From NCBI GenBank assembly GCA_964387845.1, contig CAYLXA010000001.1, forward strand, positions 345,038 through 409,037: a stretch of 64,000 nt of DNA, read 5' to 3'. Below are positions 217 through 43,706 of the stretch, in pieces. A program made the position numbers and the translations under genes. A model generated the notes under the pieces. It saw only the letters and a program-made list of their open reading frames with translations. It was not told where the DNA came from and did not search any database. Position 1 is the first letter of the stretch, and each line of letters starts with the position of its first letter. This DNA comes from an uncultured bacterium (lineage in GTDB: Bacteria; Omnitrophota; Omnitrophia; Omnitrophales; Abzuiibacteriaceae).

Positions 217-1890
217 CTACGAACGAACTTTATGATAGCGGCTTCTTAATAGCAAGAGAAAAGCAACATCTGCCGCTACCACGGCGGAAACATACCCCAC
301 ACCACCGCCGCCAAAACCATAACTATGAAGCCCGGCCGCTAAGACAAAATTCACGCCGTACCAGGCCATGATCACCGTCAAAAAGCAGACCGCGCACCAA
401 AACGCGGTCGCGAATGAATCCAGCCAGCCGGCAGTTCGCCCATGCATAACCGCCAAATACGCAAGTAACGCAATCAAAGCCCAGGTTTCCTTCGGATCCC
501 AGCCCCAAAACCGGCCCCATGAATAATTCGCCCAAACGCCGCCCAGGATTGTTCCGGCAGCGAGCAAAATAAGCCCAATTTGAAGCGAACGATAAAGAAA
601 AGTAATAAGCTCATCTAACGTTTTATTATTTTTTTTCTTAAAAGCATAGTGAAACACAACCACATGCGCGACACCCCAATTGAGCAAAAACGCACCATAG
701 CCGAGCGTAATCGTCAGCACATGAACTGTGAGCCAAAAATTGCTGCGCAAAACGGGAACCAAAGGCGAAATCGACTGGTCCAAAACCGCCGGTAAATTTT
801 CGCTGATCAAGAGCGCCAGAATGGATACGGACGCTGCGATCATCGGAATCAAATAGGACCTGTAAAAAGCAAAAAGAATGAGCGAGAAAAGCACAACACT
901 CCACGACACCCAAATGACTGACTCATACATGTTCGTCACGGGCGGACGCCCGGCGATTAAACAACGCAGCACAAAACCCAACGTATGAACCGCAAAAGCC
1001 GCGGTAAAAAATGAGAAAGCGATTTTATTGGCGCGTTTTTTATTTCTCAGTGTCAGCCAGATCAGAAGGCTGCCTAAATAAATTGCCCATGCCGTATGAA
1101 ACGGGCGAAATTTGAGATAGAAAAGCTCGTAATGAATCAACGTCCGGTCGATGATGATGTCGCGCGATTCCAGTAATTTTGTAAGCGCATTGGCGAAAAA
1201 TGAAGCAGATACGCCGGCCATTTCGATTTTTTCATCCCGCAAGCGGCCGAGGAGAAATGAAAGTGAGTTACTCGCTTCCTTCACATTCGCCGCGGGATAC
1301 ATGGTTTCCAAAATGGAAATACCGTGATCGCTCGCAAGCCCCTCAAGCGGAACCCACCCCGCCTGTGGATCATCGGGATGCGGAATAAAGCCCGGCATTT
1401 CTCCGCGCCCGATAGCCTGAAACAGACGCGCTCTGCTTCCGAGTTCAATCATTGCCTTTTCGTATTCGTTTAGTTTTTCTTTTCTGTCCTGCTTAGCCCT
1501 TACTTCACCTGTTCTTGCCGTAAAATTCAAATCGGCGAGAACAAGAGAAGGTGCGATTCTATTGTTTTCCAGATCCGCGGAGAAATCCTTTCGTAACTCG
1601 GGATTTGAAACAGGTAAAATAGCCTTCGCGCTCCAAATATCGGGGGCCGCAATCCATCGCCACACCAGTTCGGTTGGCTCCATTTTTTGAAAATGTGTTT
1701 TGCCGGTCATATAGAGGACGATTTCTTTCGCGAAACTCTCAAACGGCTTGACGCGGCCGCCCTGCTGAACCGGAATTCCACCCAAAACTTCGTGCGCATT
1801 ACCTTCGGATTGATTGGCAAAGGATTGGGGCGAGAAAAACATCGCCAAGAGAATGACTAAAGAAAGACTGACAATAAATTTACAATACAC
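217..1890 (-). CDS. ccsA: cytochrome c-type biogenesis protein CcsA/ResC (System II)
   Basis: Tryptophan-rich WWD motif WGWDPKETWALIALLAYLAVMHGR plus a polytopic C-terminal half. Signal-like KFIVSLSLVILLAMFFSPQSFA lies just after a GTG preceded by GGAAAGG. The ORF-track N-terminus (to 2001) is translation of an intergenic palindromic repeat, so I place the start near 1890. Confidence 0.8.
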   Translation of the reverse strand: MYCKFIVSLSLVILLAMFFSPQSFANQSEGNAHEVLGGIPVQQGGRVKPFESFAKEIVLYMTGKTHFQKMEPTELVWRWIAAPDIWSAKAILPVSNPELRKDFSADLENNRIAPSLVLADLNFTARTGEVRAKQDRKEKLNEYEKAMIELGSRARLFQAIGRGEMPGFIPHPDDPQAGWVPLEGLASDHGISILETMYPAANVKEASNSLSFLLGRLRDEKIEMAGVSASFFANALTKLLESRDIIIDRTLIHYELFYLKFRPFHTAWAIYLGSLLIWLTLRNKKRANKIAFSFFTAAFAVHTLGFVLRCLIAGRPPVTNMYESVIWVSWSVVLFSLILFAFYRSYLIPMIAASVSILALLISENLPAVLDQSISPLVPVLRSNFWLTVHVLTITLGYGAFLLNWGVAHVVVFHYAFKKKNNKTLDELITFLYRSLQIGLILLAAGTILGGVWANYSWGRFWGWDPKETWALIALLAYLAVMHGRTAGWLDSFATAFWCAVCFLTVIMAWYGVNFVLAAGLHSYGFGGGGVGYVSAVVAADVAFLLLLRSRYHKVRS

Positions 1891-1980
1891 CCCCTCACCC
1901 TTTCCCTCTCCCTGAGGGAGAGGGGAATTGTTTAACTCACTCCCTCTCCCGCTTGCGGGAGAGGGCTGGGGTGAGGGTTG
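1886..1980. repeat. compound palindromic repeat (ccctctccc...gggagaggg units inside an outer ccctcaccc/gggtgaggg stem)
   Basis: Two perfect inner palindromes, ccctctccctgagggagaggg and ccctctcccgcttgcgggagaggg, are enclosed by an outer inverted repeat. A related copy sits at 25715-25775. Confidence 0.7.
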
Positions 1981-2000
1981 ATTATTTAGAAATTGTCTCA

Positions 2001-3761
2001 TTAGATTTTCCTCATTTTGGGGTCACTGGTCTTAAGCGTCGAATATTGTTTTAAATAGAATAACAAAATAATTCCGACTATCATCACAATCGAACCCGCA
2101 TATTTAACCGGGATACCGGGGTCGCGCGCAACTGTAAAGACGGAAATATCCGGCTCGCCGGGCGTCACTTGATACGCAGATTGATACACTTTGAAACTAC
2201 GATGAACGAGCGGTTCATTCATCTGAATCAATTGATCGCGGCTGATTCCCTTCGCTACGTCTTTCAAAGTGACCTGGCTTTTGAAACTGGCGGGCCGGTT
2301 GGTGCCGGGATCCGTATCCATTAAAAAATCATTCAATTGAATCGTGAAGCCCAGCGGTTGCGTCTCAAGCCCATAAACAAAGTGCCAATCATGGCCGCCT
2401 AACTGAGTCCGTTCAACCTGGCCCTGCCGAAGCCATAAATTTTGAGATTCATTTCCGTCCGATAGTTCGATTTGAATGACGCGAGTTGCGCCTGTGCGCT
2501 CTGAAGCGAGAGGAATCGGAGAAAATGAACGTTCTACTTCGGCATGATGATAAAAAGCATCAACACTGAATTTAAAATCCATCCATCCGGTTTCAATTTG
2601 TTTGCCGATTTCGACAATGCCGTCCGTAAGCAAATCGCCCTTTTTAACTTGATAGCGCGGTAAACCGTCCGGATTATAAATGAACCGAAGTTCGTTCTTT
2701 GAAGCCGCTTGATCCGCTTGGCCGGCCATTTTCATCGCAATCCGCATTCCGGAAGCGCTTGGCGCCATGCCATGCACAGTCGGAAAATCGGGAAAATTCG
2801 CGAAAATGGTATGCTGTTCGTTCAATCCATCGCCTTCCAAGATCAATTCCACCGCGGGGTTCCGCCACTCCTTGGAACGGTCAATCAATTTGTTTTGATC
2901 TACAATCGCATCACGCAAAATACGGTTGAGCTTAGCGCGGATTTTAGTGCCTTGAAGCGTAAATGATTTTGGTTTGTCGGATTCCTTGATCGGAACCTGA
3001 ATGATTTTACCCGATTTGAGCATAAATTCTAAATGCGCAAATTCATCTCCCGATTTTTTCTTCGGTTTCTCGATGTCAATCGGTTGGCGCGCAAAATGAA
3101 TGACGGCGGCACCCATGGCTAGCTGATTTTTTTCGGGATTATCCAAGAAAAGCCAATCGTTGGTTTGCGCCATCGATCCGGATAGTGAAAATTGAATGGC
3201 GGGAGACCCTTTGGCGGATTCTTTGACAGATTCTCCCAAAACCGCTTTCGGGAAATCCTGCAAAACATGGATCTGAACGGAGCTTTTCGGCTTCAATTCC
3301 AATTTCCGGCGCCCGGACCACGGAAACACGCTTGGTTTATAATGCATGACAAAATGTTCTTTCAAATCGGGAGAGAAAATTTCAAGTATCGGATTCGCCA
3401 AAGTCATACGGCTTTCGGAATCGCCTTCCTGAATCGACACCTGCCCTTCAATCCCGAAACGCTGCGTGATCAAAGAACCAATGAGAATCAAGATGATTCC
3501 GAGATGGGTCAAAAGAAAACCGATGTGCTGCTTGCGCCACGGCCAACGGCTGATTGCGGATGCGGCTAAATTAATCGCCAGTAAAACCAAAACAATCGAA
3601 AACCAAGGAGTATAATAAATCAAGCGCTGGGCGGCTTCCGCACCGTGATACGACTCGATGAAGGTGCCGGCAGCCACAATAATCGCGACAGTTACAATAA
3701 GCAGAACCGCGCACCAAAGCGAAGCAAAAAATTTGAATAGGTCGGACAATAGATGATTCAT
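2001..3761 (-). CDS. ccsB: cytochrome c biogenesis protein ResB/CcsB (Ccs1, System II)
   Basis: N-terminal transmembrane helices (LWCAVLLIVTVAIIVAAG..., WFSIVLVLLAINLAASAISRWPW), a large periplasmic domain and a C-terminal transmembrane segment. It sits immediately upstream of ccsA, the classic resB-resC arrangement. Confidence 0.8.
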   Translation of the reverse strand: MNHLLSDLFKFFASLWCAVLLIVTVAIIVAAGTFIESYHGAEAAQRLIYYTPWFSIVLVLLAINLAASAISRWPWRKQHIGFLLTHLGIILILIGSLITQRFGIEGQVSIQEGDSESRMTLANPILEIFSPDLKEHFVMHYKPSVFPWSGRRKLELKPKSSVQIHVLQDFPKAVLGESVKESAKGSPAIQFSLSGSMAQTNDWLFLDNPEKNQLAMGAAVIHFARQPIDIEKPKKKSGDEFAHLEFMLKSGKIIQVPIKESDKPKSFTLQGTKIRAKLNRILRDAIVDQNKLIDRSKEWRNPAVELILEGDGLNEQHTIFANFPDFPTVHGMAPSASGMRIAMKMAGQADQAASKNELRFIYNPDGLPRYQVKKGDLLTDGIVEIGKQIETGWMDFKFSVDAFYHHAEVERSFSPIPLASERTGATRVIQIELSDGNESQNLWLRQGQVERTQLGGHDWHFVYGLETQPLGFTIQLNDFLMDTDPGTNRPASFKSQVTLKDVAKGISRDQLIQMNEPLVHRSFKVYQSAYQVTPGEPDISVFTVARDPGIPVKYAGSIVMIVGIILLFYLKQYSTLKTSDPKMRKI

Positions 3762-3861
3762 AACAGTTTAAGATAAGGGGTAATTATACATGATTGGCAT
3801 AGCACACGTCATTAGAAACCGAAATTAGTTTAAGCGGGAATTAATTAGACTGATTGAAGAA

Positions 3862-5949
3862 TCAGCCCCAAGCCAAGCTGATTTCGCAGGAAATTAAATG
3901 CGCAATGTAATCGCCAAATTCGGCGTTGGAATTGGCAAGATAGTAATAAAGTCCGTATTTTGGCTCAACAGTTACTTTTTCATTCACATTCCATTTCAAG
4001 CCCGCTTCCAAATCCAGTTTCCGATAATCAGATCCGATCGGCAAGCCTCTGGCAGTAAAATCATTAAAATTATCAGCACGGGCATATTGCACCGATTGAA
4101 TAAACGAAACATTTTCTTTCGGCATGTAGCTCGTACTCAATGTCCACGTATCCACATTCGCGTTAAAACCCGGCAGGTTACCGCTTAATGCGCCGGCGGC
4201 CGGAGTATTGGTGTTTGACATAAGCTTTGAATAGGAGCCCAGAATCATTACATTTTCAACGGGTTGCGATGTAAAATCAAAAATAAAATTATTTGAGGTT
4301 GTTTCCGTATCAACGCCTGCTAAATTTTCAATGTTCGTCCTGTAATTTGTATCGCGCCCGATAAACCGAAAAGACGGCTGAAGATATTTGGTTAATGTCA
4401 ATGCCAACCTCATCATGAATTCATTAATATAGGTGTGCTGGCTGTCAAAAAATGCAGATTTTGAAACTCCTGATGAAACAGTTTCGTAAATATCATCGTA
4501 ATCCGTCATTTTAAGAGTCCTTCGAAAATGCGAAGTAATCCGCACAAATGAAAACGGCGCTGCGTGCCCGCCTAAAGTCATCACGCCACGCTGGATGTTT
4601 GTAATCGTTTCGCGAATAAAAACTTCACTTGCACTCGCCCCCGACTGTCCGCCAACGCTATCCCGATTTTCAGACATCGGTAACCGGTCTTGTTCTAATT
4701 CCAATTCTGTATAAATAGCCGTCCGCGGAATCGCCGTAAATCTGGCCGTAATCCCTTGTCCCCACCTGAAACCGCTCATACGCGTATCGCTGACGTCAAA
4801 TCGGTTAATGCGATTATCGGGCGGATCTGTGGTCTCAACGTTATAAGTAGACTCTCCGCGGCGATTTAAAAATTCTGACTTAACCTTTGCGCCGATATTG
4901 AACCATTTTGTGACCAGGGCCATCATATTAGCAACCCAGGTGTTGGAATGAAAATGGTTGGTTGCGATATTGCCAAAACGGTTTTCAGCATTTGCAAATG
5001 AACGCGGATTACCATTTTCGTCAAACTCTCGGATATCTTCCCATTCTTTGTTATGGATTTGTGCATATCGATACCCAGCCGAAGTGTACACTTTGTCCTT
5101 TAAAAACCACTTCGCGATTCCAAATATTGAGCTGAAAGTGTGTGCTTCCGGCTTTTGCTGCTGCTTTCTAATTAATTTATTACCAGCCGTAGCATCAGAG
5201 TCAGCGCCAAAATATTTCTCGACGCGTGTGTTATCGGATTTCACAATTTCAAATTTTTGCTCGCTTTTAAGTTCATAACCTTTAACGGTATGGTCGACTT
5301 TCAAGCCAAACGTATCCGCCACTTCGCTCACATCCTGATAGGAAGGCGCTATTTTCCGCGTCACACCGCTCTGAACCACGTCTCCCCATGTTAATCTGGA
5401 TTTTGCACCATTTTTAAATTCGCGCTCATACCCAATCATTACTTTTGGAAAATCCGGTATATCCAGCTCCGCTTCAACGCCGAAATGGCCGATGTCCAGT
5501 TCTAAATCTTTAACCGCGTCGCCAACCCGGAGTGTGTAGTCGCCCCGCGTTAGATTAAACGGATGATAAACACCGCCCGTCCGGTCATAATATTTCCGGA
5601 ACTCTTGGTAATCAAATTTGATTTGTCCCACTTCTTTTTTCTTGATGATGACAACGCCTTCGTAATCATTGTCCGCGGGGATTGCCTTGCCTTCCATTTT
5701 TACCGTAATATCATTCGGAAGCCTGTAAAAAGAATAAAATTCCTCAACGCCTGCGGCGTAATTGTTGCTCTTCCAATGATGCGCTCTGAATTTATCGGCT
5801 TCCCCGTCCACAAAAATATAACGGACCGGAAGAGGTGTGATATCAAGATGATTTTCTGAATTATTTTCCGAAGCTGCGTATAGAGATTGAGTGACGGCCA
5901 AAGAGACATACGCTAAAACGAATATTAACTTCCAATATGAGCGTCTCAT
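3862..5949 (-). CDS. secreted putative outer-membrane beta-barrel (porin-like) protein
   Basis: Start refined to MRRSYWKLIFVLAYVSLAVTQSLYA (signal peptide) with RBS AGGAGG just upstream. About 696 aa. G/Y/N/T-rich with alternating hydrophobic pattern and no transmembrane helices. Co-operonic with multiheme cytochromes. Confidence 0.45.
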   Translation of the reverse strand: MRRSYWKLIFVLAYVSLAVTQSLYAASENNSENHLDITPLPVRYIFVDGEADKFRAHHWKSNNYAAGVEEFYSFYRLPNDITVKMEGKAIPADNDYEGVVIIKKKEVGQIKFDYQEFRKYYDRTGGVYHPFNLTRGDYTLRVGDAVKDLELDIGHFGVEAELDIPDFPKVMIGYEREFKNGAKSRLTWGDVVQSGVTRKIAPSYQDVSEVADTFGLKVDHTVKGYELKSEQKFEIVKSDNTRVEKYFGADSDATAGNKLIRKQQQKPEAHTFSSIFGIAKWFLKDKVYTSAGYRYAQIHNKEWEDIREFDENGNPRSFANAENRFGNIATNHFHSNTWVANMMALVTKWFNIGAKVKSEFLNRRGESTYNVETTDPPDNRINRFDVSDTRMSGFRWGQGITARFTAIPRTAIYTELELEQDRLPMSENRDSVGGQSGASASEVFIRETITNIQRGVMTLGGHAAPFSFVRITSHFRRTLKMTDYDDIYETVSSGVSKSAFFDSQHTYINEFMMRLALTLTKYLQPSFRFIGRDTNYRTNIENLAGVDTETTSNNFIFDFTSQPVENVMILGSYSKLMSNTNTPAAGALSGNLPGFNANVDTWTLSTSYMPKENVSFIQSVQYARADNFNDFTARGLPIGSDYRKLDLEAGLKWNVNEKVTVEPKYGLYYYLANSNAEFGDYIAHLISCEISLAWG

Positions 5950-5959
5950 GACGGCCTCC

Positions 5960-6742
5960 TTAATATCGAAGATGATCGTCAAAATTGGAACCATGAACCG
6001 CCGTGTGGCACTTCGCGCTGAAGCAAGTGCCTTGCGCAAGGCGCGTAGCATGATTAGAACTTCCGATGAACGGAAAATTATCTTGTGTATGACAACGTAA
6101 ACATAAATTACTGTCGCGGGCAATCAGCATTTTGTCAGTAATCGAGCCATGAACTTGATGACATGTCGTGCAGCCTTCGCGCAGCGCTTCATGCTCCCAC
6201 ACAAACGGGCCGCGTTGTTCTTTATGACATTTAAAGCATGCTTCGTTGACATCTTCCATGGTTGTGGATGACCATGGCCTGACTTCCGGTCCGTGCGGAC
6301 TATGGCAGTCCGAACAACTCATCTTTCCTTCGAGCACGGGATGGTGGTGCGGAAGATTAAATTCTACTTTTTTATCGGTATGACACGCAAAACAGACGGA
6401 CGGATCTTTTCTGGGATTAATGATTTTCTTATCTTGGCTGGATTCTTTTAACTTATCATCCATATCGACATGTAGACTTCCGGGGCCATGACAAAGCTCG
6501 CAGCCTTGTACCGCCATATCTTTTCCGGGAATGCTGATACGGGAATGGGTCGAAAGTTCAAACTCTTTGACTTCTTTTTCATGGCAAGCGGCGCAAGTAT
6601 CCATACCGACATACTCCGCGCCTTCTATGTTATGAACTTCGAGAACTTTTTGGAGGGCTTCTTCGTCGTATTTGCAAGAAGTGACACTGAGAACGAGGGA
6701 TAATACCGCAAAACTAACAAAAATGCTGGCTTTTTGATTCAT
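5960..6742 (-). CDS. multiheme c-type cytochrome lipoprotein (7 CXXCH + 1 CX4CH)
   Basis: Lipobox LSVTSC. Heme motifs CAACH, CELCH, CFACH, CSDCH, CFKCH, CTTCH, CLRCH and the atypical CFSAKCH. 260 aa. Confidence 0.85.
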   Translation of the reverse strand: MNQKASIFVSFAVLSLVLSVTSCKYDEEALQKVLEVHNIEGAEYVGMDTCAACHEKEVKEFELSTHSRISIPGKDMAVQGCELCHGPGSLHVDMDDKLKESSQDKKIINPRKDPSVCFACHTDKKVEFNLPHHHPVLEGKMSCSDCHSPHGPEVRPWSSTTMEDVNEACFKCHKEQRGPFVWEHEALREGCTTCHQVHGSITDKMLIARDSNLCLRCHTQDNFPFIGSSNHATRLAQGTCFSAKCHTAVHGSNFDDHLRY

Positions 6743-6875
6743 GCTAGCGGTTTATGATTTGTGTTTGCGTACGAATTATATTGTTTTATTAAGAAATGAC
6801 AATCGCTTTTATGGCAGTGAAATTATCGACATTTCCTGAAAAACTTTATGTGACATCTGTCACTTAAATTGACGT

Positions 6876-8366
6876 TTATGCAGGGCCGCCGGTATGGCAA
6901 TCCATGCACGATATTTCTTTCCATGATTCTTGATCGCCGTCGGGATGCTTAAATTCCAGCCCATCTACCGAACTTTCCATAGCGCCAAATGGACCTTGAG
7001 CAATAATCCCGTGGCAAATTTTGCAATCATTTGAAATGATTTTACCCTGCGGGCTTTCATGCTTGCCGTCATGGCAACGGAAACAACCTGGCGCCATCAT
7101 GTGCCCGATATTGTCCGGATACGCTTTCCAAGACACATTCATACCCGGGAAAAAGTTGGATTGATAAATTTCAACAATGGCTTGAATAGAACGGTCTAAC
7201 TTGTTTTTCTGATTCTGGAAAACTTCCGGATAATTATCCTCGTAAAATTTTTCCAACCGCGACCGAATCTGAGCAGCCGCATCATCATGAGACTCGTATT
7301 TGCCGACCAAAACCTTGACGGCTTCGCGTTTCATATAAGGGAGCTCGGCGGCAATATCGCCTTTTCCCATTGCTTTATTGACAGACCTGGAAGGCGCTTC
7401 ATATTGATGGCTGGGCCGATTGTGGCAATCGATGCAGTCCATTTTTCGGATTTCGCCTTGCGGCGGTTTGCTAGCAGAAAATTTTGACTCACTGTCTACA
7501 AAATATTCTTCGCGGCCATCCTCATAAACCACTTTGACCCATGGAATTATTTGACGTTTTTCGTCAGTTGAAACATAGTAAACTTTGTTCGCAGGGTTCA
7601 CATGCCAATGGCTTCCATGCGCCTTTTCCCCGCCGCCCACATACATCAGCATGCGGGTGTTCCAAAGTGTGTTACTTTCGTCTGACATGAAATATTGATG
7701 ATCCTTCTCAATGGCTCCAAAAAACTTCTCGGGCCAATGACAATGTTCGCATGTTTCTTGAGCGGGCCGTAAATTCTTGACCGGCGCCGGAATGGGTTTG
7801 GAATATTTCTTGAAAATAGATGAATAAATTTGATGGGCGCCGTTAATTTTAGACTTCAAATAATAATCAGGCCCTGGGCCGACATGGCATTCAACGCAGG
7901 AAACGCGGGCATGCGGCGATTTGTGATACGCGGTAAATTCCGGATGCATGACTTGATGGCAGGTTTTTCCGCAAAATGTCACGGATTCCGAAAATTGATA
8001 AGCCTTGTAAGTTCCAAACATAGAAAAAATCAAGAAAACCGTGAAAAACCCAATGCCGATTAACGCCCAGCGTTGATGGGCCGGATTATTAAAATCAATC
8101 TGCGGAAACTTGCGGACATAACCTCTTTTCCGGCGCGCCGAACGTTCCCGCCAAGCGCCAAAAAAAATTAAAAAAAGAGTGAGTATAAGGAAGGCCGGAA
8201 GCCCGACATAAGTGATGGATTGCGTGTAGGGATTAATTTCTTTTGAAAGGAATTCGAGGACAATTAAAACTAAGATAGCAGAGAAAATGACAATGGAAAG
8301 AATTGCGCCGATAATGCTGAGCCAATTTTGAAAAAGGCTTTTGTTTGAATTTGGCAATTCAGACAT
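6876..8366 (-). CDS. membrane-anchored multiheme c-type cytochrome (3 N-terminal transmembrane helices; 6 CXXCH + 1 CX3CH), ImcH-like architecture
   Basis: Three hydrophobic helices in the first ~120 aa. Then CGKTCH (CX3CH), CVECH, CEHCH, CIDCH, CFRCH, CKICH, CMDCH. 3 TM plus ~7 hemes matches my memory of inner-membrane quinol-oxidising cytochromes such as Geobacter ImcH. Confidence 0.75.
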   Translation of the reverse strand: MSELPNSNKSLFQNWLSIIGAILSIVIFSAILVLIVLEFLSKEINPYTQSITYVGLPAFLILTLFLIFFGAWRERSARRKRGYVRKFPQIDFNNPAHQRWALIGIGFFTVFLIFSMFGTYKAYQFSESVTFCGKTCHQVMHPEFTAYHKSPHARVSCVECHVGPGPDYYLKSKINGAHQIYSSIFKKYSKPIPAPVKNLRPAQETCEHCHWPEKFFGAIEKDHQYFMSDESNTLWNTRMLMYVGGGEKAHGSHWHVNPANKVYYVSTDEKRQIIPWVKVVYEDGREEYFVDSESKFSASKPPQGEIRKMDCIDCHNRPSHQYEAPSRSVNKAMGKGDIAAELPYMKREAVKVLVGKYESHDDAAAQIRSRLEKFYEDNYPEVFQNQKNKLDRSIQAIVEIYQSNFFPGMNVSWKAYPDNIGHMMAPGCFRCHDGKHESPQGKIISNDCKICHGIIAQGPFGAMESSVDGLEFKHPDGDQESWKEISCMDCHTGGPA

Positions 8367-8403
8367 TTTTTACTTTTTTCCCGTATCGATACAGTGCCGA
8401 CTG

Positions 8404-8967
8404 TTACGATTTCGGTTTTGGATGTGCAATCTTTGCTTGGCGCTCTTTGTAATCAAACGGCTTGTAGGTCGGGCTTTCCTGATTATGGCACTTCACGCAC
8501 GTACTTTCATCCGGTAACAACAAACCATTTTCAATCGATGCCTGGCGGTCTTCCATAACACTTTTCTTCATATAATCCTTACCGGGCCCGTGACAGCTTT
8601 CGCAGGAAACACCTTCCTCTACCGGAATCGCATCAGAAACTTTTGTTTCGCCAAACCAATAAGCCGTTGAGTGGCATTTTAAACACTTGCCGCTGGTTTG
8701 AGGATCGCTAATACCTAATTTGGCAGCCGCTTCTTTCGCGGCGGGTGTGCCGAGTGTTTCAAATGCTTTAGCATGCATGGATTCCTGCCAAATCCGGAAT
8801 TGCTCACCTTCTTCCGGTTTTTTGTGGCACAGGGAACATTTTTTGGCTCCGATAAATTCATGTGCAGGCGCTGCTGCAAAAACAGGTTGATGGCTGAGAA
8901 AAAATACGGAAATAACAGCTAGGAAATATTTGAGAAAAATACCGGAATGAAACGAGTGCTTTGACAT
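8404..8967 (-). CDS. tetraheme c-type cytochrome (secreted)
   Basis: Start refined to MSKHSFHSGIFLKYFLAVISVFFLSHQPVFAAAPA (signal peptide), with AGGAG 11 nt upstream. Motifs CSLCH, CLKCH, CESCH, CVKCH. Confidence 0.8.
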   Translation of the reverse strand: MSKHSFHSGIFLKYFLAVISVFFLSHQPVFAAAPAHEFIGAKKCSLCHKKPEEGEQFRIWQESMHAKAFETLGTPAAKEAAAKLGISDPQTSGKCLKCHSTAYWFGETKVSDAIPVEEGVSCESCHGPGKDYMKKSVMEDRQASIENGLLLPDESTCVKCHNQESPTYKPFDYKERQAKIAHPKPKS

Positions 8968-9294
8968 ATTTTGGTGGCTCCTGTTTAGCTTCCTACTTTG
9001 CACTCTTATATACGAAATGCCCGCTCGTGCATGTGACATTCATCACTGCCCCAGCGTAACTTTAAAACAAAAATCACACTCTAATTAGAACGCTGGGACT
9101 GGACTCATTTCCTCTAGACTCACGCTTTTCTCAATGAAAATGAGTCCTGCACGAATTTTATCAATAAATGAAGATAGAAAGCAATTGCCAATAATTCTCA
9201 CAAATTATCGTAATTTGCCGTCAATTTATGAAGAAAATAATTGACCCATATCAGCGAAGTGCTAGAGTAAACAAAAAGTTGAGGAGGTGCTCAC

Positions 9295-9621
9295 ATGCAA
9301 AGCGTGTTACTATTAATTGCTCTCGGTTTTGGCTTTAAAATATTCGCGGAAGCCAGTGAAAAGCAGAAAAAACCCATTAAACAGCTCGGCCGGTTGGTCG
9401 GTATTATCATCATGATTGTCAGCCTTTGCGGCGTTTTGTGCAGCATTTTCGCCTGCATGAAAGGCAGCCCCTGTGGTCCGGCGACGGCCGGCTATTGCCC
9501 TACTCATGGATCCGAAAAAGGAATGATGGGTTTCGGCCATTACGGGATGAAAAAGGATAAGGCGATGTGCCCCTTGTTTGGTTCAGCCGATAAGAATGCT
9601 GTTTCCGACGAGGCAAAATAA
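9295..9621 (+). CDS. small Cys-rich membrane protein, hypothetical (possible metal-binding)
   Basis: Strong RBS GAGGAGG 7 nt before ATG. One transmembrane helix followed by a Cys/His/Met-rich tail (CGVLC...CMKGSPCGP...GYCPTHG...MMGFGHYGM...MCPLFG). Confidence 0.5.
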   Translation: MQSVLLLIALGFGFKIFAEASEKQKKPIKQLGRLVGIIIMIVSLCGVLCSIFACMKGSPCGPATAGYCPTHGSEKGMMGFGHYGMKKDKAMCPLFGSADKNAVSDEAK

Positions 9622-9882: not shown

Positions 9883-10089
9883 ATGGCACAAGGTACAGTC
9901 AAGTGGTTCAATAACGAAAAAGGTTATGGATTTATTGCTCCTTCATCTGGCGGAAAAGATGTGTTTGTTCATCATACCGCAATTCAAGGCGATGGTTACA
10001 AGACTTTGAATGAAGGCGAGCAAGTAAACTTTGAAGTCGTTAGCGGACCCAAAGGCGACCAAGCGTCTAACGTTGTCAGACAGCGTTAA
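9883..10089 (+). CDS. cold-shock protein (CspA family)
   Basis: [20 protein letters not shown]...VFVHHTAIQ...GDQASNV, a canonical cold-shock domain with RNP1/RNP2 motifs. Confidence 0.95.
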
Positions 10090-10111: not shown

Positions 10112-10152
10112 ATAAAACCCCGTTCTCTTAATTGAGGACGGGGTTTTATTTT
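10112..10152. terminator. bidirectional Rho-independent terminator between the csp gene and the convergent Memo-AMMECR1 gene
   Basis: aaaaccccgttctcttaattgaggacggggttttatttttc. About a 10-bp GC-rich stem with T-tract on the + strand and A-tract on the other side. Confidence 0.7.
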
Positions 10153-11693
10153 TCTTCAAACGAAAAAACTGTAAAGGCAGAGAGCTTAACGGAAGGGCTT
10201 TTCCAGGTATCGGCCGGCAACCCCGCTTTTTCGGAACAAAGCAGGTTCATAAATTCTTCTTTATTTCCGTTCACATGTTCCCACACCTGCGGTAAAAAAA
10301 GACCTTTATTTCCATCTTTCTCGACAATCACGCCGCTTTGATTTGGAATGATGTCTTCGTGGCTCTTGATTTCTCGGATCGGCGAAAGTACGGAAATTTC
10401 GAACTTCACTTTCGAAAGCTCGCTCAAAGAAAGCTTCGCAAACCGGGGGTCCTGCGTTGCGGCAGCAATCGCGTAATCACGGACAGCTTGCAAAAGCGGT
10501 TTATCGGCATCCACGGTTCCGATGCAGCCGCGGAGTTCCCCGTTTTCCATCAATGTCACAAACACGGCGGACGGGACGGCAAGTTCGCCTTTTAAGGTTT
10601 TTGCGTCGATTTTTGTTTTCTCGCCGGATTTTAAATATTGCTCAACCGCCGAACGTGCTTCGGCTAAAAGTTTCTTTTGGCTCTCCGGAGAAACCGCAAA
10701 TGCTTCCTCCGTTTTCAAACTGTGAAACGTTTGCGGCGAATCTTTTGTAAACATAACAGCGCCATATCCGACTGTTTTGAGCGGCGTTCCGTATGGGCTG
10801 TCGGCGGAAGTGGCGTGATTCAAAACCGTTCCGCGCTTTGCGCCTAACTTGCGTGCCGCAGCCATCACAGCAATCGTGGCGCCTTCGCCGCACAGTGTGA
10901 CGTGAAGCTCCGGAATTTTCTTCGCCAAAATTTCTTCCGTTTTCTGCAAAAGCGCCTGCGCGTTCATGTCTTCGATGGTTTTTAGGATCAAAAGATCGGA
11001 TTCATTGGCGTTTTTTGCGTGCGGATAATGCGCCATGTCGGTCGAGCCGATTAAAATCGTACGGATGCCTTCCGATTCATTTTCTTTGATAACATCAGCA
11101 ATCACTTCTCCGATCCGTTCGGCCGTCGCCAAATCCGGATTGCCCATCACGATCGGGACAATTTTGAAATTTTGAAGGGTTTGCTGCAGAAACGGGATTT
11201 GTGTTTCGAGTGAATGTTCACCGCCATGCGCTTCCGGGTTGGCCTCCAAATCTTTTGAGCAGCTCAGAAGCTTCTGTGCCGTTTTTTCATCGACCGGAAC
11301 ATCGCCAAGCGGGCTTCTGAACGCGCCCTTCGGATACACCGCGCCGCCTTCAAGCGGATAAGAATGCGCAAGCCCGAGCAAAATAACGGTATCAATTTTT
11401 CGGCCTTCGATTTGTTTATACACATGCGCCGCAACGGGGCCGGAAAACACGAAACCGGCATGCGGTGCGAGAAACGCGACAGATTTACCTTGCGTGTCAA
11501 CTTTTCGGGCAGCATCCAGAAGAACCTTGATCATTCTCTGAAGCTCTTCCGGCTCAGCGGGATAAAACTGATCGGCAACGGCGGGTTCTCGGATCATGTT
11601 GGCATTTTCCATGGCGTAAGCACTCGGGGAAATAAAACTCAAACAAACTGCTAAAATAAAAAAGCAAACACTTTCATTTCGAAAGTGCTTCAT
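10146..11693 (-). CDS. fused Memo1-like (N-terminal) / AMMECR1 (C-terminal) protein with N-terminal signal-like segment
   Basis: N-terminal half: ADQFYPAEPEELQ...FLAPHAGFVFSGPVAAHVY (MEMO1 family). C-terminal half: LAVPSAVFVTLMENGELRGCIGT...QDPRF (AMMECR1). Likely start MKHFRNESVCFFILAVCLSFISPSAYA; the longer ORF-track start overlaps the upstream gene. Confidence 0.8.
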   Translation of the reverse strand: MKHFRNESVCFFILAVCLSFISPSAYAMENANMIREPAVADQFYPAEPEELQRMIKVLLDAARKVDTQGKSVAFLAPHAGFVFSGPVAAHVYKQIEGRKIDTVILLGLAHSYPLEGGAVYPKGAFRSPLGDVPVDEKTAQKLLSCSKDLEANPEAHGGEHSLETQIPFLQQTLQNFKIVPIVMGNPDLATAERIGEVIADVIKENESEGIRTILIGSTDMAHYPHAKNANESDLLILKTIEDMNAQALLQKTEEILAKKIPELHVTLCGEGATIAVMAAARKLGAKRGTVLNHATSADSPYGTPLKTVGYGAVMFTKDSPQTFHSLKTEEAFAVSPESQKKLLAEARSAVEQYLKSGEKTKIDAKTLKGELAVPSAVFVTLMENGELRGCIGTVDADKPLLQAVRDYAIAAATQDPRFAKLSLSELSKVKFEISVLSPIREIKSHEDIIPNQSGVIVEKDGNKGLFLPQVWEHVNGNKEEFMNLLCSEKAGLPADTWKSPSVKLSAFTVFSFEEK

Positions 11694-12222
11694 TCTTCTT
11701 ATCAGACGCTTTGCCCGGCTCTTCCGATTGCATCCAATGCTTAATCGTATCCGGCATCGGCGGCGATTCCTGCCAACTGCCGAGAAGCGCCAGGACTTGA
11801 GGTGTCGGCACATTCCCTTTCGGGCTTCTGAAAAGGCCCTTTACATACCCAACGGCCATGCATTTTCCGTCGTGAATGAATGACTGCTTGATGAAAATCC
11901 ATTTGTGGTCCCAGCAGATTACGCGGCTCACAAGCTGATAGCGCTGAAATAATTTTAAGGAACGCTTGTAACGAACGTTGACGGATGCCACAAGCGGCGC
12001 CAGATGATTTTTCCGGCAGATTTCGCCGAAACCCATGCGAAGAATAATATCGTAACGGCCCAAATCCATCACCGTCAAATAGCGGCCGTTGTTCATGTGG
12101 AAATAAATATCGAGATCGTTTGGGAAAACCCAAAGCGTTAAAACAGACGGATCGGATACTTTGAGAGGCTTTCTGAAAAATGAGGCGATTTTAACAAGCA
12201 GAATCCGGAAGAGTAGATTCAT
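11674..12222 (-). CDS. hotdog-fold acyl-CoA thioesterase-like protein
   Basis: 182 aa, with VFPNDLDIYFHMNNGRYLTVMDLGR...ASVNVRYKRSL, pattern-matching the 4HBT/thioesterase superfamily. Moderate only. Confidence 0.5.
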   Translation of the reverse strand: MNLLFRILLVKIASFFRKPLKVSDPSVLTLWVFPNDLDIYFHMNNGRYLTVMDLGRYDIILRMGFGEICRKNHLAPLVASVNVRYKRSLKLFQRYQLVSRVICWDHKWIFIKQSFIHDGKCMAVGYVKGLFRSPKGNVPTPQVLALLGSWQESPPMPDTIKHWMQSEEPGKASDKKNEALSK

Positions 12223-12232: not shown

Positions 12233-14494
12233 TTACTTCCCCTTCATTAAATTCAGCGCGCTGCCGGCCTTAAACCAGGCGACCTGCTCCTGTGTAAAAG
12301 AATGCACGAGCGGCGCGTTTTCGGTTTCGCCGTTTGCGTGCATAATCACAAGCTCCAGCAAACTTTTGGGCGCCAAAATATCAACGCCTTCGATGCTGAT
12401 GCGGTCATCCGCTTTGATTTTGTCATAATCAGACGGGTTTTTGAACTTAAGCGGCAGGAGGCCCTGCTTTTTTAAATTCGTTTCATGAATCCGCGCAAAA
12501 CTTTTTGCAATCACGGCTGCGCAGCCCAAATACCGCGGGCTCATCGCGGCATGTTCGCGGCTTGAGCCTTCACCATAATTTTCATCGCCGACCACAACCC
12601 AACGGAGGTTATTCTTTTTATAATCGCGCGCCACTTCCGCCGGTGTCATTTTAGTACCCTTTTGAAGCTGATTCAGGGCTGTGCCTTGCGCACCGGAAAA
12701 ATCATTGTTGGCTCCGAGAAACATGTTGTCTGAAATTTTATCCAGATGGCCTCGATATTTGAGCCATGGCCCGGCTGGCGAAATATGGTCCGTCGTACAT
12801 TTCCCCTTCGCTTTGAGCAGCACCGGAAGATTTTCGAAATCGCTTTCCTTCCAGGGCTTAAACGGCTCCAATTTCTGGAGGCGCTCGCTTTGCGCATCGA
12901 TTGAAACTTGCACAAAAATTCTCTCTTTTTCGGAGAGCGGCGCCAGAAATCCCGCTTCGCCTGCGGCAAATCCGCTGGAAGGAAGTTCCGGTGCTTCGGG
13001 CGGCGTCAAAAGTATTTCCTTTCCGCCGGTTTTGATTTTGTCTTTAAGCGGATTGAAATCGAGGCGGCCTGCCAGTGCATAGGCCGTCACGATTTCGGGC
13101 GAGGCGATAAAAGCCAGAGTTTCGGGATTACTATCGTTTCTCGCAGGAAAATTACGGTTAAAGGATGTAATGATCGAATTTTTCTCGCCTTTTTTGATAT
13201 CGTCACGTTTCCACTGGCCAATGCAGGGGCCGCAGGCATTTGCAAGAACCGTTCCGCCGATTTCTTCTAAGGCCTGAAGCTGGCCGTCTCGCTTAATGGT
13301 GTTTTGAATTTGGTCGGATCCCGGCGTGATTAAAAAGTAGCACTGGGCTTTAATGCCGGCTTCACGGGCCTGTTCGGCCACCTGCGCAGCGCGGCCGATA
13401 TCTTCATAAGAAGAATTGGTACAACTGCCGATGAGCGCAGCTTTGATCATCGCCGGATAACCTTTTTCTTTCACGTCCTTCGCCATCTCGGAAACCGGGC
13501 GTGCCAAATCCGGCGTATGTGGGCCCACAACATGCGGCTCTAGCGCGGACAAATCAATTTCAATCACTTCGTCATAATAAAGTTCCGGGTTTTTATCGAT
13601 TTCAGGATCTGCAGTCAGAAATTTTTTGTGCTGCTCGGCGATATCCGCAATTTCTTTGCGTTTTGTGCTGCGCAAATAAGTTACCATTCGCGAATCAAAC
13701 GGAAAAACAGAAGTCGTTGCGCCCAGCTCTGCGCCCATATTGGCGATTGTGCCTTTTCCGGTACAGCTGATAGACTGCGCGCCGGATCCAAAGTATTCGA
13801 CGATCTTATCCGTTCCGCCTTTCGTTGTTAAAATCCCACAAAGTTTCAAAATCACGTCCTTGGCAGAAGCCCAGCCGTTCAATTTTCCCTTTAAATGAAC
13901 GCCTATCAACTTCGGGCATTTGACTTCCCAGCTGAGGCCCGACATCACATCGGCTGCATCCGCGCCGCCGACACCGATCGCCAGCATGCCAAGGCCGCCT
14001 GCATTCGGCGTGTGGGAATCCGTCCCGATCATCAACCCGCCGGGAAACGCATAGTTTTCGAGCACAACTTGATGAATAATCCCCGCGCCGGGTTTCCAAA
14101 ATCCGATCCCGTAACGCTGCGCTGCGGTTTTCAGGAATTCGTAGACTTCCTTATTGGTTTGGACTGCATTGAGCGTGTCTTCTGCGGCACCGATCCGGGC
14201 TTGGATCAAATGATCACAATGAATGGTTGTAGGAACCGCGACGGAATTGCGCTGAGCCAGCATGAATTGCAGGATTGCCATTTGCGCTGTCGCATCCTGC
14301 ATTGCCACGCGGTCCGGCCTGAGTGAAAGATAGCTTTCGCCGCGCACGAAATCCTGGGATTTGAGATCTGTCACGTGCGTTGCCAGGATTTTTTCGGTAA
14401 GCGTGAGCGGCCGGGCTAATTTTTTTCTGAGAAAATCAACTTTACCTTCGGCAGTTGCCAAAAGGCTCTTAATCATAAAAAGCGCATCGCTCAT
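12233..14494 (-). CDS. acnA: aconitate hydratase (aconitase A)
   Basis: 753 aa. Fe-S ligand region IGSCTNSSYEDI, ANACGPCIGQW, SFNRNFPARNDSNPET and the swivel domain. Full-length aconitase-family match. Confidence 0.95.
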   Translation of the reverse strand: MSDALFMIKSLLATAEGKVDFLRKKLARPLTLTEKILATHVTDLKSQDFVRGESYLSLRPDRVAMQDATAQMAILQFMLAQRNSVAVPTTIHCDHLIQARIGAAEDTLNAVQTNKEVYEFLKTAAQRYGIGFWKPGAGIIHQVVLENYAFPGGLMIGTDSHTPNAGGLGMLAIGVGGADAADVMSGLSWEVKCPKLIGVHLKGKLNGWASAKDVILKLCGILTTKGGTDKIVEYFGSGAQSISCTGKGTIANMGAELGATTSVFPFDSRMVTYLRSTKRKEIADIAEQHKKFLTADPEIDKNPELYYDEVIEIDLSALEPHVVGPHTPDLARPVSEMAKDVKEKGYPAMIKAALIGSCTNSSYEDIGRAAQVAEQAREAGIKAQCYFLITPGSDQIQNTIKRDGQLQALEEIGGTVLANACGPCIGQWKRDDIKKGEKNSIITSFNRNFPARNDSNPETLAFIASPEIVTAYALAGRLDFNPLKDKIKTGGKEILLTPPEAPELPSSGFAAGEAGFLAPLSEKERIFVQVSIDAQSERLQKLEPFKPWKESDFENLPVLLKAKGKCTTDHISPAGPWLKYRGHLDKISDNMFLGANNDFSGAQGTALNQLQKGTKMTPAEVARDYKKNNLRWVVVGDENYGEGSSREHAAMSPRYLGCAAVIAKSFARIHETNLKKQGLLPLKFKNPSDYDKIKADDRISIEGVDILAPKSLLELVIMHANGETENAPLVHSFTQEQVAWFKAGSALNLMKGK

Positions 14495-21010: not shown

Positions 21011-22108
21011 TCAGATTCTGACTTTTGTTTGAATCTTTTCGATAATGGCCTGCGCCATTTCTTTGGTGCCGACTGCCGTCGGGTCATCACGATTTTGTTT
21101 CAAATCATAGGTAACGCTCTTTCCTTCACGAATGACAGCTGCTACCGCATTTTCAAGTTTTTTTGCGGCTTCTTCTTCACCGAGATGCTGCAGCATCAAA
21201 ACGCCTGACAGAATAACAGCGGTTGGGTTTACTTTGTTCAAGCCCGCATATTTCGGCGCAGAACCATGCGTCGCTTCAAAAATCGCCGCGCCGCCGATTC
21301 CAATGTTAGCGCCCGGCGCAATCCCGAGCCCGCCGATAAGCCCCGCGCAAACGTCCGAAATAATATCACCATAGAGATTCGGGAGCACGATTACATCATA
21401 CAGCTCGGGTTTTTGAACGAGCTGCATGCACATATTGTCCACAATCCGGTCTTCAAATTCGATATTGGGATATTTTTTTGCCACTTCGCGCGAAACTTCA
21501 AGCCACAAACCGTCCGAATACTTCATGATGTTAGCTTTATGGACAGACGTCACTTTTTTGCGCTTATACTTCACGGCATAATCAAAAGCAAATTTGACGA
21601 TACGCTCCGTTCCGGAAACAGAGATGGGCTTAATGCTCACGCCTGAATCCGGGCGAATCGGCTGCTTGGAAAGAGACGAGCAAAGATCGAGAACCTGCTT
21701 TGCTTCCGGCGTTCCCTTCTGGAACTCGATGCCGGCGTATAAATCTTCAGTATTTTCACGGACAATTACCAAATCGATGTTTTTATATTTGGAACGGACG
21801 CCTTCATAAGATTTACAGGGACGAAGGCAAGCAAACAGGTCAAACTTTTTGCGGAGTGCTACATTGACGGAACGAAAACCTTTTCCGACCGGGGTTGTAA
21901 TGGGCGCTTTGATGGCAACTTTGTTCTTTTCGATGGATTTGAGAAGTTCATCGGGAAGCGGCGTTCCCACCTTCTCCATAATATCGACGCCGGCTTCTTG
22001 GATATCCCAATTGATTTTGACGCCCGTCGCATCAATGCAGCGCTTAGCAGCTTCGGCAAGCTCAGGGCCCGTTCCATCACCGCGGATGAGTGTAATATCG
22101 TAAGCCAT
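21011..22108 (-). CDS. icd: isocitrate dehydrogenase (isocitrate/isopropylmalate dehydrogenase family)
   Basis: Start refined to [67 protein letters not shown]. Assigned icd rather than leuB from the acnA/aceBA context. Confidence 0.85.
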
Positions 22109-22199
22109 TTTTAATTTCCCTTCTCTTGCATGAATTGCTATGATGAGCGCTTCGGAAAGTGAAATCGTAACAAATCTATGCGGGTATTTCAACAGATTA

Positions 22200-24112: not shown

Positions 24113-25714
24113 ATGACATCTCTAAATAACCTAAAATCAGACGGAATCGAAATTAAAGGCGCTCTTACGCCTGCCTTCTCCGAAATCCTAACGCCTGAAG
24201 CCGTCAAATTTGTTGCGAGCCTTGAAAAAAAATTTGGGGCCCGTCGGCTTGAATTATTAGAAAAGCGCAAGGTCAGGCAAGCAGAAATCAACGCCGGCAA
24301 AATGCCGGACTTTCTAAGCGAAACCAAATCCGTCCGCGACAGCGACTGGAAAGTTGCACCGATCCCGAAAGACCTCCTCGAACGCAAAGTCGAAATCACA
24401 GGGCCCGTGGAACGCAAAATGATGATTAATGCGCTTAATTCCGGCGCCAATGTGTTCATGGCCGATTTCGAAGATTCCAACTCACCGACTTGGCAGAACA
24501 ACATCGAGGGGCATATAAATTTGCGCGACGCCGTCAATCGTACGATATCATTCAAAAACCCTGACGGAAAAGAATACCAACTGAACGATAAAATCGCGAC
24601 TTTGCTGGTTCGGCCGCGCGGCTGGCATTTAAACGAGAAACACATGACTGTGAGCGGCAAAGAAATCTCCGCTTCCTTGTTTGATTTTGGGTTTTTCTTT
24701 TTCCATAACGCGAAAACTTTGATCCAAAAAGGAACAGGCCCCTATTTTTATTTACCCAAAATGGAAAGCCACTTGGAAGCGCGTTTGTGGAATGATGTGT
24801 TTAATTTCGCACAGGATGAAATCAAAATCCCGCGCAGCTCAATTCGCGCGACGGTTTTGATTGAAACCATCTTAGCTTCGTTCGAAATGGATGAAATTTT
24901 GTACGAACTGAAAGATCACTCCGCAGGCCTCAATTGCGGACGCTGGGATTATATTTTCAGCTTCATCAAGAAATTCCGAGAGAAACCGGATTTCCTGCTT
25001 CCCGACCGTGCGCAAGTGACAATGGATAAGGCTTTCCTGAAGGCCTATGTCGAACTTTTGATCAAAACATGCCACCGCCGCGGCATTCACGCGATGGGCG
25101 GCATGGCGGCACAGATTCCTATTAAATCTGACCCCATTGCCAATGAAGCGGCGCTCGAAAAGGTCCGTCAGGACAAGCTTCGCGAAGTAAAAGCTGGCCA
25201 CGACGGCACTTGGGTTGCGCATCCGGGACTTATTCCGATCGCCATGGATGCCTTCAATCAAAATATGAAAGGTGCTAATCAATTAAATGTCGCACGTTCC
25301 GAAGTTCAAATTACGGCAAAAGATTTGCTCACCGTTCCAAAAGGCGATATCACCGAAGCCGGCCTCCGCAAAAATGTGAATGTCGGAATTCTCTACATCG
25401 AATCGTGGCTGCGCGGCTTGGGATGTGTACCACTTTATTACTTGATGGAAGACGCTGCAACTGCGGAAATCTCGCGCACGCAAGTGTGGCAATGGATCCG
25501 GCATCACGCGAAAATGACAAACGGTGTTCAAGTGACAGCTGAGTTGGTACAGAAAATCGTGAAGGAAGAACTTGCCGATATGGAAAAATCGGTTGGTGTT
25601 GAGAAATTTAAATCCGGAAAATTTAAACTTGCTTCAGAAATTTTCTACGAAATGAGTACTCGAAAAGAATGTCCTGACTTTTTAACGATCGAAGCTTATA
25701 AACATTTAGATTAA
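24113..25714 (+). CDS. aceB: malate synthase A
   Basis: The N-terminus and GPVERKMMINALNSGANVFMADFEDSNSPTW region are collinear with E. coli AceB; 533 aa. Confidence 0.95.
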   Translation: MTSLNNLKSDGIEIKGALTPAFSEILTPEAVKFVASLEKKFGARRLELLEKRKVRQAEINAGKMPDFLSETKSVRDSDWKVAPIPKDLLERKVEITGPVERKMMINALNSGANVFMADFEDSNSPTWQNNIEGHINLRDAVNRTISFKNPDGKEYQLNDKIATLLVRPRGWHLNEKHMTVSGKEISASLFDFGFFFFHNAKTLIQKGTGPYFYLPKMESHLEARLWNDVFNFAQDEIKIPRSSIRATVLIETILASFEMDEILYELKDHSAGLNCGRWDYIFSFIKKFREKPDFLLPDRAQVTMDKAFLKAYVELLIKTCHRRGIHAMGGMAAQIPIKSDPIANEAALEKVRQDKLREVKAGHDGTWVAHPGLIPIAMDAFNQNMKGANQLNVARSEVQITAKDLLTVPKGDITEAGLRKNVNVGILYIESWLRGLGCVPLYYLMEDAATAEISRTQVWQWIRHHAKMTNGVQVTAELVQKIVKEELADMEKSVGVEKFKSGKFKLASEIFYEMSTRKECPDFLTIEAYKHLD

Positions 25715-42039: not shown

Positions 42040-42041
42040 TC

Positions 42042-43690: not shown

Positions 43691-43706
43691 AAAAGTTTAT
43701 AATCAT

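Follow-up and report, generated by a model that had tools for sequence, protein, structure and literature searches.

A cluster of six genes, all on the minus strand, in a 64,000-nt stretch of DNA from an uncultured member of the Omnitrophota (Omnitrophia; Omnitrophales; Abzuiibacteriaceae) appears to encode a complete haem wire leading from the inner membrane out to the surface of the cell, assembled from known parts whose combination and shortened form have gone unrecognised by public annotation. The stretch, referred to here as the window, covers positions 345,038-409,037 of the forward strand of contig CAYLXA010000001.1 (GenBank assembly GCA_964387845.1), and all coordinates without a locus number are those of the window. 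Our interpretation, to which we give a probability of about 0.7, is that the locus encodes a compact Mtr-type trans-envelope chain, in which quinol would be oxidised at the inner membrane, a periplasmic tetrahaem cytochrome would carry the electrons onward, and an MtrAB-like pair would export them to soluble or chelated acceptors. An initial annotation of this DNA had read the six co-oriented genes as a Geobacter-like porin-cytochrome (Pcc) conduit beside dedicated cytochrome c maturation genes; the open reading frame (ORF) list of the window confirms the genes and their orientation, as follows:

217-2001, minus strand: CcsA/ResC, System II haem lyase subunit with a long N-terminal extension (PF01578, 112.6 bits)
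2001-3761, minus strand: ResB/CcsB, System II cytochrome c maturation protein with transmembrane segments at both ends (PF05140, 91.6 bits)
3862-5949, minus strand: MtrB-like outer-membrane beta-barrel of about 26 strands by its predicted fold, outside Pfam and NCBIfam families
5960-6742, minus strand: MtrA-like octahaem cytochrome with a lipobox, presumed haem wire inside the barrel (match to PDB 6r2q_A)
6876-8366, minus strand: ImcH-type inner-membrane heptahaem cytochrome, putative quinol dehydrogenase (three transmembrane segments, seven haem motifs)
8404-9039, likely start 8967, minus strand: secreted tetrahaem cytochrome with a c554-type domain (four CXXCH motifs, Pfam)

For comparison, one genome per species was scanned for related loci, whose ORFs were searched with the six window proteins. 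This gave 36 loci (designated by L numbers), nearly all from Omnitrophota metagenome-assembled genomes (MAGs), many of them from groundwater, and one from Syntrophales. Full-text literature searches returned no publication describing this gene cluster.

The 260-aa product of 5960-6742 carries, by motif count, seven CXXCH motifs and one CX4CH (CFSAKCH, the last of the eight), and its signal peptide ends in the lipobox-like sequence L-S-V-T-S-C23. When PDB sequences were searched with phmmer, it matched 6r2q_A with an E-value of 2.9e-41 in two overlapping stretches within query residues 23-254; 6R2Q is the Mtr complex of Shewanella baltica, and chain A is MtrA, the deposited molecule name being wrong. 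Query residues 23-151 align with MtrA 39-168 and residues 107-254 with MtrA 173-325, and because both alignments overlap on query motifs 3 and 4, the alignment places the octahaem protein as one that is without one two-haem unit relative to the internally duplicated MtrA. Judged by its sequence, the protein is a clear homologue of MtrA/DmsE. The terminal CX4CH, in the form C-[FWYS]-[ST]-x-x-C-H, was found in 32 of the 33 full-length homologues from the related loci, the single exception having CXXCH in its place (a 34th homologue, in L011, ends in unresolved sequence ahead of the motif). This motif, at residues 240-246, aligns with haem A10 of MtrA, which the crystal structure shows exposed at the cell surface (PMC7198977). 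The lipobox is confined to the close lineage of the window (the window itself, L005, L031 and L040), and most other homologues have ordinary signal peptides. The family is large and its conservation is high, with 2,796 matches and 59-92% identity among the matches listed, and the only public names it has received are 'hypothetical protein', 'cytochrome c3 family protein' and 'predicted CXXCH cytochrome'.

The downstream gene begins with an ATG at 5949, only 10 nt from the stop codon of the cytochrome gene; the gap, GGAGGCCGTC, contains GGAGG. Translated from this ATG the protein is 695 aa long and has a cleavable-looking signal peptide, in agreement with the secreted protein of about 700 aa and the ribosome-binding site of the initial annotation, while the mechanical ORF reaches back to a TTG at 6123 and overlaps the cytochrome gene. 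No Pfam or NCBIfam family matched the 695-aa sequence, and no match to PF11854 (MtrB_PioB) appeared even at E <= 1; its 69 close homologues are listed either without names or as Candidatus Omnitrophica/Omnitrophota. An AlphaFold2 model from a 43-sequence alignment was confident, with a mean predicted local distance difference test score (pLDDT) of 89.6 and a predicted TM score (pTM) of 0.80, and is all beta after the signal peptide, so that a soluble or alpha-helical protein, the outcome that would have spoken against the initial annotation, is not what the model shows. DSSP assigned 28 strand elements to it. Because two short ones (189-193 and 196-201) look like the tip of one long hairpin, the barrel would have about 26 strands, not the 20-22 which the initial annotation had expected of a Pcc porin. 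In a Foldseek search of the PDB the best match to the model was 6r2q_B, which is MtrB, with TM scores of 0.66/0.71, and the remaining matches were all 22-strand TonB-dependent receptors with TM scores of about 0.4. MtrB was the best structural match by two methods, with 554 of its 649 residues covered, and its own barrel has 26 strands (PMC7198977). TonB-dependent receptors and ordinary porins fitted the model much worse. The identification of the barrel as a TonB-dependent receptor was also tried and discarded, as the protein has no plug or TonB-receptor Pfam match and its structural scores fall so far below those for MtrB.

Among the distant members of the barrel family, which lie outside the window and as a whole form 913 representative clusters at E <= 1e-3, we observed proteins of ~790-915 aa in which one or two N-terminal monohaem PSCyt1 domains (PF07635, Planctomycete cytochrome c) are fused to an MtrB-like barrel (P0277, P0283, P0286, P0300, P0310, P0320, P0327, P0333 and P0336). 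Such a fusion amounts to a fused cytochrome-porin built on a large barrel, with a logic reminiscent of Cyc2.

The inner-membrane end of the chain would be provided by the 496-aa heptahaem protein. It has six CXXCH motifs and one CX3CH (CGKTCH, the first), at positions 132, 157, 206, 311, 428, 448 and 487, preceded by three hydrophobic segments (~10-45, 49-74 and 99-120), and PF03264, the NapC/NirT N-terminal region, matches residues 102-189 (E 6.7e-12). This is the architecture by which Levar and colleagues defined ImcH (GSU3259) in 2014: three putative transmembrane helices and a NapC/NirT-like region, together with seven haem motifs beginning with a CXXXCH (PMC4251993). GSU3259 itself is 507 aa long, with motifs at 132, 156, 205, 311, 428, 448 and 486 and transmembrane segments at 13-35, 45-67 and 100-122, and the same table lists as ImcH homologues three Omnitrophica proteins with this motif pattern (PMC6295460, Table S3). 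The motif positions of the two proteins thus differ by no more than 1 residue, and the initial annotation, which had named ImcH as a comparison for its membrane cytochrome, was right in this. The CX3CH is kept in 14 of 14 ImcH-like ORFs of the related loci. By its architecture and the published table, the heptahaem protein is of the ImcH type and a putative quinol dehydrogenase; ImcH is needed in Geobacter for the reduction of high-potential extracellular acceptors (PMC4251993). The family has 7954 matches in many phyla, which are either without names or called 'NapC/NirT family cytochrome c'.

Upstream of the ImcH-like gene lies the gene for the tetrahaem protein, which combines a signal peptide with four CXXCH motifs. 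Its most likely start is M25 (8967), giving 187 aa, because its homologues measure 179-186 aa. It scored 65.1 bits against the Pfam Cytochrome_C554 cut-off of 20.8 and matched cytochrome c554 in the PDB (1bvb, E 4.2e-12), while it stayed far below the cut-off of the CycA equivalog NF043010 (57.6 against 400 bits), from which we take it to have a c554-type fold and not to be an orthologue of nitrifier CycA. In the periplasm it is probably the partner of the ImcH-like protein, and its gene stands immediately upstream of the ImcH-like gene in all five related loci that have it. Thus the haem-motif counts, the three hydrophobic segments and the lipobox-like signal peptide bear out the three cytochromes of the initial annotation, namely one with four haems, one with about seven and three transmembrane segments, and one an eight-haem lipoprotein.

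The last two genes of the cluster are the resB-ccsA pair that had been noted downstream. Both products score over the cut-offs of their Pfam families, and as adjacent genes they make a System II pair; the stop codon of ResB and the start of CcsA overlap by 1 nt, as they also do in L005. CcsA falls slightly under the cut-off of TIGR03144 (ccsB; 161.5 against 187.6 bits). We propose that ResB/CcsA attach the haems of the cluster cytochromes, and it is an idea, put forward as such, that the neighbouring ResB/CcsA could be specialised for the atypical CX3CH and CX4CH motifs. To call them dedicated, as the initial annotation did, is an overstatement, since ResB/CcsA were found near the pair in only 5 of the 11 fully flanked relatives (loci with at least 8 kb on either side), with no sign of their being an additional copy. 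Inside the 5' end of ccsA, at 1898-1965, there are two perfect GC-rich palindromes resembling repetitive extragenic palindromes, CCCTCTCCC...GGGAGAGGG, which translate as PSPASGRGS...SPLPQGEGKGEGV; the pattern occurs once in the window and scans as a terminator-like hairpin on the plus strand.

Two promoter-like sites turned up in a sigma-70-like scan in which the total number of sites in the region was not above the shuffled expectation:

6775-6802, minus strand: possible promoter-like site in the 133-nt gap upstream of the MtrA-like gene (TTGTCA-16-TATAAT, 11/12)
3783-3812, minus strand: possible promoter-like site in the 100-nt gap upstream of resB (ATGACG-18-TATAAT, 10/12)

Because both of the larger intergenic gaps hold a good match, the six genes may perhaps form three units, the tetrahaem gene with imcH, the MtrA-like gene with the barrel gene, and resB with ccsA.

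In 29 of the 30 related loci with enough upstream DNA to be counted, the barrel gene is immediately preceded by the MtrA-like gene, which is far beyond chance. Of the 11 fully flanked relatives, 8 have an ImcH-like gene within 10 kb and 3 have the tetrahaem gene. The core unit is the pair of MtrA-like and barrel genes, the tetrahaem and ImcH-like genes are a second module, and ResB/CcsA are a frequent and not an obligatory neighbour. The version in the window is the most compact form, as relatives often carry more cytochromes: proteins with nine haems (420-650 aa) are encoded after the barrel gene or before the ImcH-like gene, and an 11-haem protein of 620-740 aa adjoins the ImcH-like gene in four loci:

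L003, 14079-16091: 11-haem gene, CbcL/MtoC-like, with a Ni_hydr_CYTB domain on record
L012, 16359-18224: 11-haem gene
L018, 16499-18715: 11-haem gene
L031, 3805-5694: 11-haem gene

Since the 11-haem protein, CbcL/MtoC-like in L003, adjoins the ImcH-like one, these genomes would combine two inner-membrane quinol oxidases of the Geobacter type with an Mtr-type conduit. In one relative (L001/L002, 4372-8668) multicopper-oxidase-like, cation-efflux and NnrS genes precede the pair instead of ImcH, a layout which hints that the pair has been joined with different partners in different genomes.

Taken as a pathway, the ImcH-like heptahaem protein in the inner membrane would exchange electrons with the quinone pool and the secreted c554-like tetrahaem protein would ferry them across the periplasm. 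The MtrA-like octahaem protein, which we infer to form a complex with the 26-strand MtrB-like barrel and to be threaded through it, would then take them across the outer membrane, where its terminal CX4CH haem would be exposed at the cell surface. The ten-haem chain of MtrA is 80 Å long and the outer membrane only ~40 Å thick (PMC7198977), so that by analogy a chain two haems shorter should still span the membrane. The exposed haem would most likely reduce soluble or chelated acceptors, such as Fe(III) chelates, humics and quinones or other shuttles, rather than bulk minerals, because no MtrC/OmcA-like surface cytochrome is encoded in the window: only three of its ORFs are multihaem, none of them MtrC-like, and among its further ORFs none has more than one CXXCH, the single exception with one motif being a 71-aa ORF. 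MtrAB without MtrC can reduce soluble Fe(III) chelates (PMC7198977). A terminal oxidase or reductase that would account for the cytochromes otherwise was likewise absent from the Pfam matches of the ~40 further ORFs of the window, itself a small part of the genome, as the initial annotation had observed.

Several results weigh against this interpretation. The octahaem protein remains below the cut-offs of TIGR03508, the NCBIfam DmsE family (175.7 against 192.2 bits), and of NF041028, the GSU2203 decahaem family (184.4 against 325 bits), and it has eight haems, not the ten CXXCH motifs of the MtrA type. Its AlphaFold2 model, made for the cytochrome alone from a 42-sequence alignment, is unusable (pLDDT 46.5, pTM 0.30), a poor outcome which is expected because a haem-scaffolded protein was modelled without its haems. 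For the barrel, a profile of the family found no meaningful match among PDB sequences, so that its similarity to MtrB is undetectable in sequence and the link between the two is structural only; when 43 members of the family were scanned against Pfam at E <= 1, a single MtrB_PioB match (2.2e-7) and six generic OMP_b-brl matches were obtained. On the direction of flow, systems that consist of MtrAB and lack MtrC, such as MtoAB and PioAB, are typically those of Fe(II) oxidisers.

The same hardware might accordingly work inwards, as a MtoAB/PioAB-like uptake system oxidising Fe(II), reduced humics or a cathode-like partner, in which the c554-like protein would hand electrons either to the ImcH-like protein, then serving as a quinone reductase, or to an oxidase whose gene lies elsewhere. 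We consider this unlikely, but it is a serious rival, because the layout without MtrC matches MtoAB and PioAB and because cytochrome c554 of Nitrosomonas feeds a NapC/NirT-type quinone reductase; here, too, the partner of a c554-type domain is a protein with a NapC/NirT-like region. The barrel family lacks the CXXC motif that marks the MtrB proteins of metal-reducing Gammaproteobacteria, and inward flow would also suit the largely groundwater origin of the relatives and the copper oxidase and NnrS genes beside the pair in one of them. What makes us favour the outward direction is that ImcH homologues had turned up only in Fe(III) reducers, with ImcH implicated only in quinol oxidation (PMC6295460), together with a heterotrophic metabolic context. 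Within 20 kb of the cluster are four ORFs (12233-14494, 21011-22192, 24113-25714 and 25781-27088) for aconitase, isocitrate dehydrogenase, malate synthase and isocitrate lyase, and this set from the tricarboxylic acid cycle and glyoxylate shunt suggests organotrophy, with respiratory growth on acetate or fatty acids, while Pfam scans of the window ORFs found no cupredoxin, cbb3/aa3 oxidase or carbon-fixation genes.

If electrons do leave the cell, their destination could be an enzyme exposed at the surface, with its gene elsewhere, or a host or partner cell supplied directly, and not an abiotic acceptor. MtrAB paralogues of Shewanella (DmsEF) serve extracellular reductases in this manner, extra nine-haem cytochromes follow the barrel gene in several relatives, and the window has pseudopilin-like genes at 59785-63515. 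Omnitrophota are reported to be mostly ultra-small with host-dependent traits, and a host-dependent lifestyle has been proposed for many of them, although the respiratory classes are not specifically the host-dependent ones (PMC10066038). As neither such an enzyme nor an extra cytochrome is encoded in the 64-kb window, we regard this variant as improbable. Still further from the evidence is a purely periplasmic NrfH/c554-type module serving an N- or S-oxide reductase encoded elsewhere, with the barrel as an unrelated porin or transporter. At its N-terminus the heptahaem protein does resemble NrfH (TIGR03153, 51.4 bits; PDB 2j7a_C, E 5e-4), and the tetrahaem protein resembles c554 of nitrifiers, but the NrfH score is far under the cut-off of 134 bits and the similarity is to the NapC/NirT region known in ImcH. 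In addition, the barrel gene is translationally coupled to an MtrA homologue, the pairing is kept in nearly all the loci counted, and the barrel model is fitted far better by MtrB than by TonB-dependent receptors or ordinary porins, all of which leaves the periplasmic module largely refuted. The NrfH/NrfA and hydroxylamine oxidoreductase (HAO) readings of the cytochromes, which the initial annotation had named as an outcome that would speak against it, were rejected: at the cluster, Pfam and NCBIfam found neither NrfA nor a catalytic cytochrome of the HAO type, motif counts gave no CXXCK, and the scores lay far under the cut-offs.

Returning to the Mtr-type chain with outward flow, its closest counterpart is the MtrAB core of the Shewanella MtrCAB complex (6R2Q), in which a cytochrome gene homologous to that of the window likewise stands immediately upstream of the gene for a ~26-strand barrel. 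With MtoAB of Sideroxydans and PioAB of Rhodopseudomonas it shares the lack of an extracellular MtrC; unlike MtrCAB, the form that reduces metal oxides, it has no extracellular decahaem MtrC/OmcA encoded with the pair. The cytochrome differs from MtrA in having 8 haems instead of 10, a final CX4CH instead of CXXCH and, in the window lineage, a lipobox, the barrel differs from MtrB and PioB in its lack of recognisable sequence similarity, and the inner-membrane partner is of the ImcH type and not CymA or CbcL/MtoC. In Geobacter imcH is monocistronic (PMC4251993), whereas here its counterpart lies between a c554-like gene and the mtrAB-like pair, and a 2018 survey had found no mtrAB or mtoAB beside any imcH (PMC6295460).

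The Pcc systems proposed in the initial annotation (OmaB/OmbB/OmcB and ExtABCD) are similar in combining a periplasmic 8-haem cytochrome with an outer-membrane barrel that conducts electrons across the outer membrane, and this much of the proposal, a conduit through the outer membrane, is upheld by the MtrA homology and the MtrB-like barrel. The Geobacter model itself did not hold, as the barrel is MtrB-sized with about 26 predicted strands against the ~20-22 given there for Pcc, the demonstrated homology of the eight-haem cytochrome, which has the haem count of OmaB/OmaC, is to MtrA/DmsE, and no OmcB-like lipoprotein is present. The Pcc complex includes a 12-haem outer-membrane cytochrome (PMC4245776), while the window locus lacks an outer-surface multihaem lipoprotein, has no third cytochrome gene behind that of the barrel, and encodes neither of the regulators OrfR and OrfS. 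The evidence thus supports a conduit of the Shewanella/Sideroxydans MtrAB/MtoAB type and not of the Geobacter Pcc type. A partial likeness exists also to the c554/cM552 pair of Nitrosomonas, where a tetrahaem c554-domain gene stands beside that of a membrane cytochrome with a NapC/NirT-type region; unlike that pair, the genes of the window have no hydroxylamine oxidoreductase nearby, and the tetrahaem protein is far from the CycA equivalog.

Since each part belongs to or resembles a known family, the locus is not a new kind of system. What is new is an apparent barrel family that is a sequence orphan and MtrB-like only by its predicted fold, an octahaem MtrA that appears from its sequence to be shortened and to end in a conserved CX4CH haem, an imcH-type gene adjoining an mtrAB-type pair, and Omnitrophota as the host phylum for such a conduit. 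A survey of the phylum reported FeGenie matches to 'metal-reducing cytochromes' of the Desulfovibrio ferrophilus type in 10 of 23 Omnitrophia species and nowhere mentions Mtr, ImcH, porins or extracellular electron transfer (PMC10066038), and Omnitrophica were among the taxa with iron-cycling genes in a subsurface study (PMC8478452). As the phylum is uncultured, mostly ultra-small, and known in its energy metabolism only from genome surveys, the chain from ImcH through c554 and MtrA to the barrel would, if our interpretation is true, give it a concrete and testable route of extracellular respiration. It would also run counter to the 2018 statement that mtrAB never occurs next to imcH, and would be a natural minimal conduit, with 8 haems and no MtrC, for asking how short a haem wire across the outer membrane can be. 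Surveys of extracellular electron transfer would be under-counting such systems, because the outer-membrane component escapes standard annotation entirely and the cytochrome receives no better name than 'hypothetical' or 'cytochrome c3 family'. A bolder version, which we think has only a slim chance of being right, is that the octahaem/CX4CH cytochrome and the sequence-orphan 26-strand barrel form a distinct unannotated Mtr-like clade that is the main respiratory outlet of a subset of the Omnitrophota, wired to ImcH (in relatives also to a CbcL-like protein) as a Geobacter-style inner-membrane toolkit and possibly exchanging electrons with partner cells or dissolved groundwater shuttles, with the PSCyt1-fused barrels bridging Cyc2-type fused cytochrome-porins and two-component Mtr-type conduits.

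Elsewhere in the window, a low-GC island at 42001-44750 (GC 0.32 against ~0.46 elsewhere) is possibly acquired DNA; it encodes a 511-aa protein with no Pfam, NCBIfam or PADLOC match and a 347-aa protein with a C-terminal DUF4325 (STAS-like) domain. A run of ORFs without Pfam matches at 58214-63969 is probably a pilus or pseudopilus gene set, in which 59785-60255 resembles minor pseudopilins (GspI/PilV, below cut-off) and 61791-63515 resembles part of HpsA. When NCBIfam and PADLOC were run on the window ORFs that lack a Pfam match, only pseudopilin-like, HpsA-like and exosortase-associated matches resulted, and no defence systems. What seems to be one operon at 48881-57404 encodes a helicase-nuclease pair of the AddA/AddB type (1107 and 1033 aa) and, after it, a 701-aa protein without a match in any family library. 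The 555-aa product of a single ORF at 10146-11813 has a signal-like hydrophobic segment at its N-terminus, followed by fused Memo-like and AMMECR1 domains, both of them components of the AmmeMemoRadiSam system. Divergent from the cytochrome cluster, a 108-aa Cys-rich membrane protein with no family match is encoded on the plus strand at 9295-9621, and its gene is followed by that of a cold-shock protein at 9883-10089.

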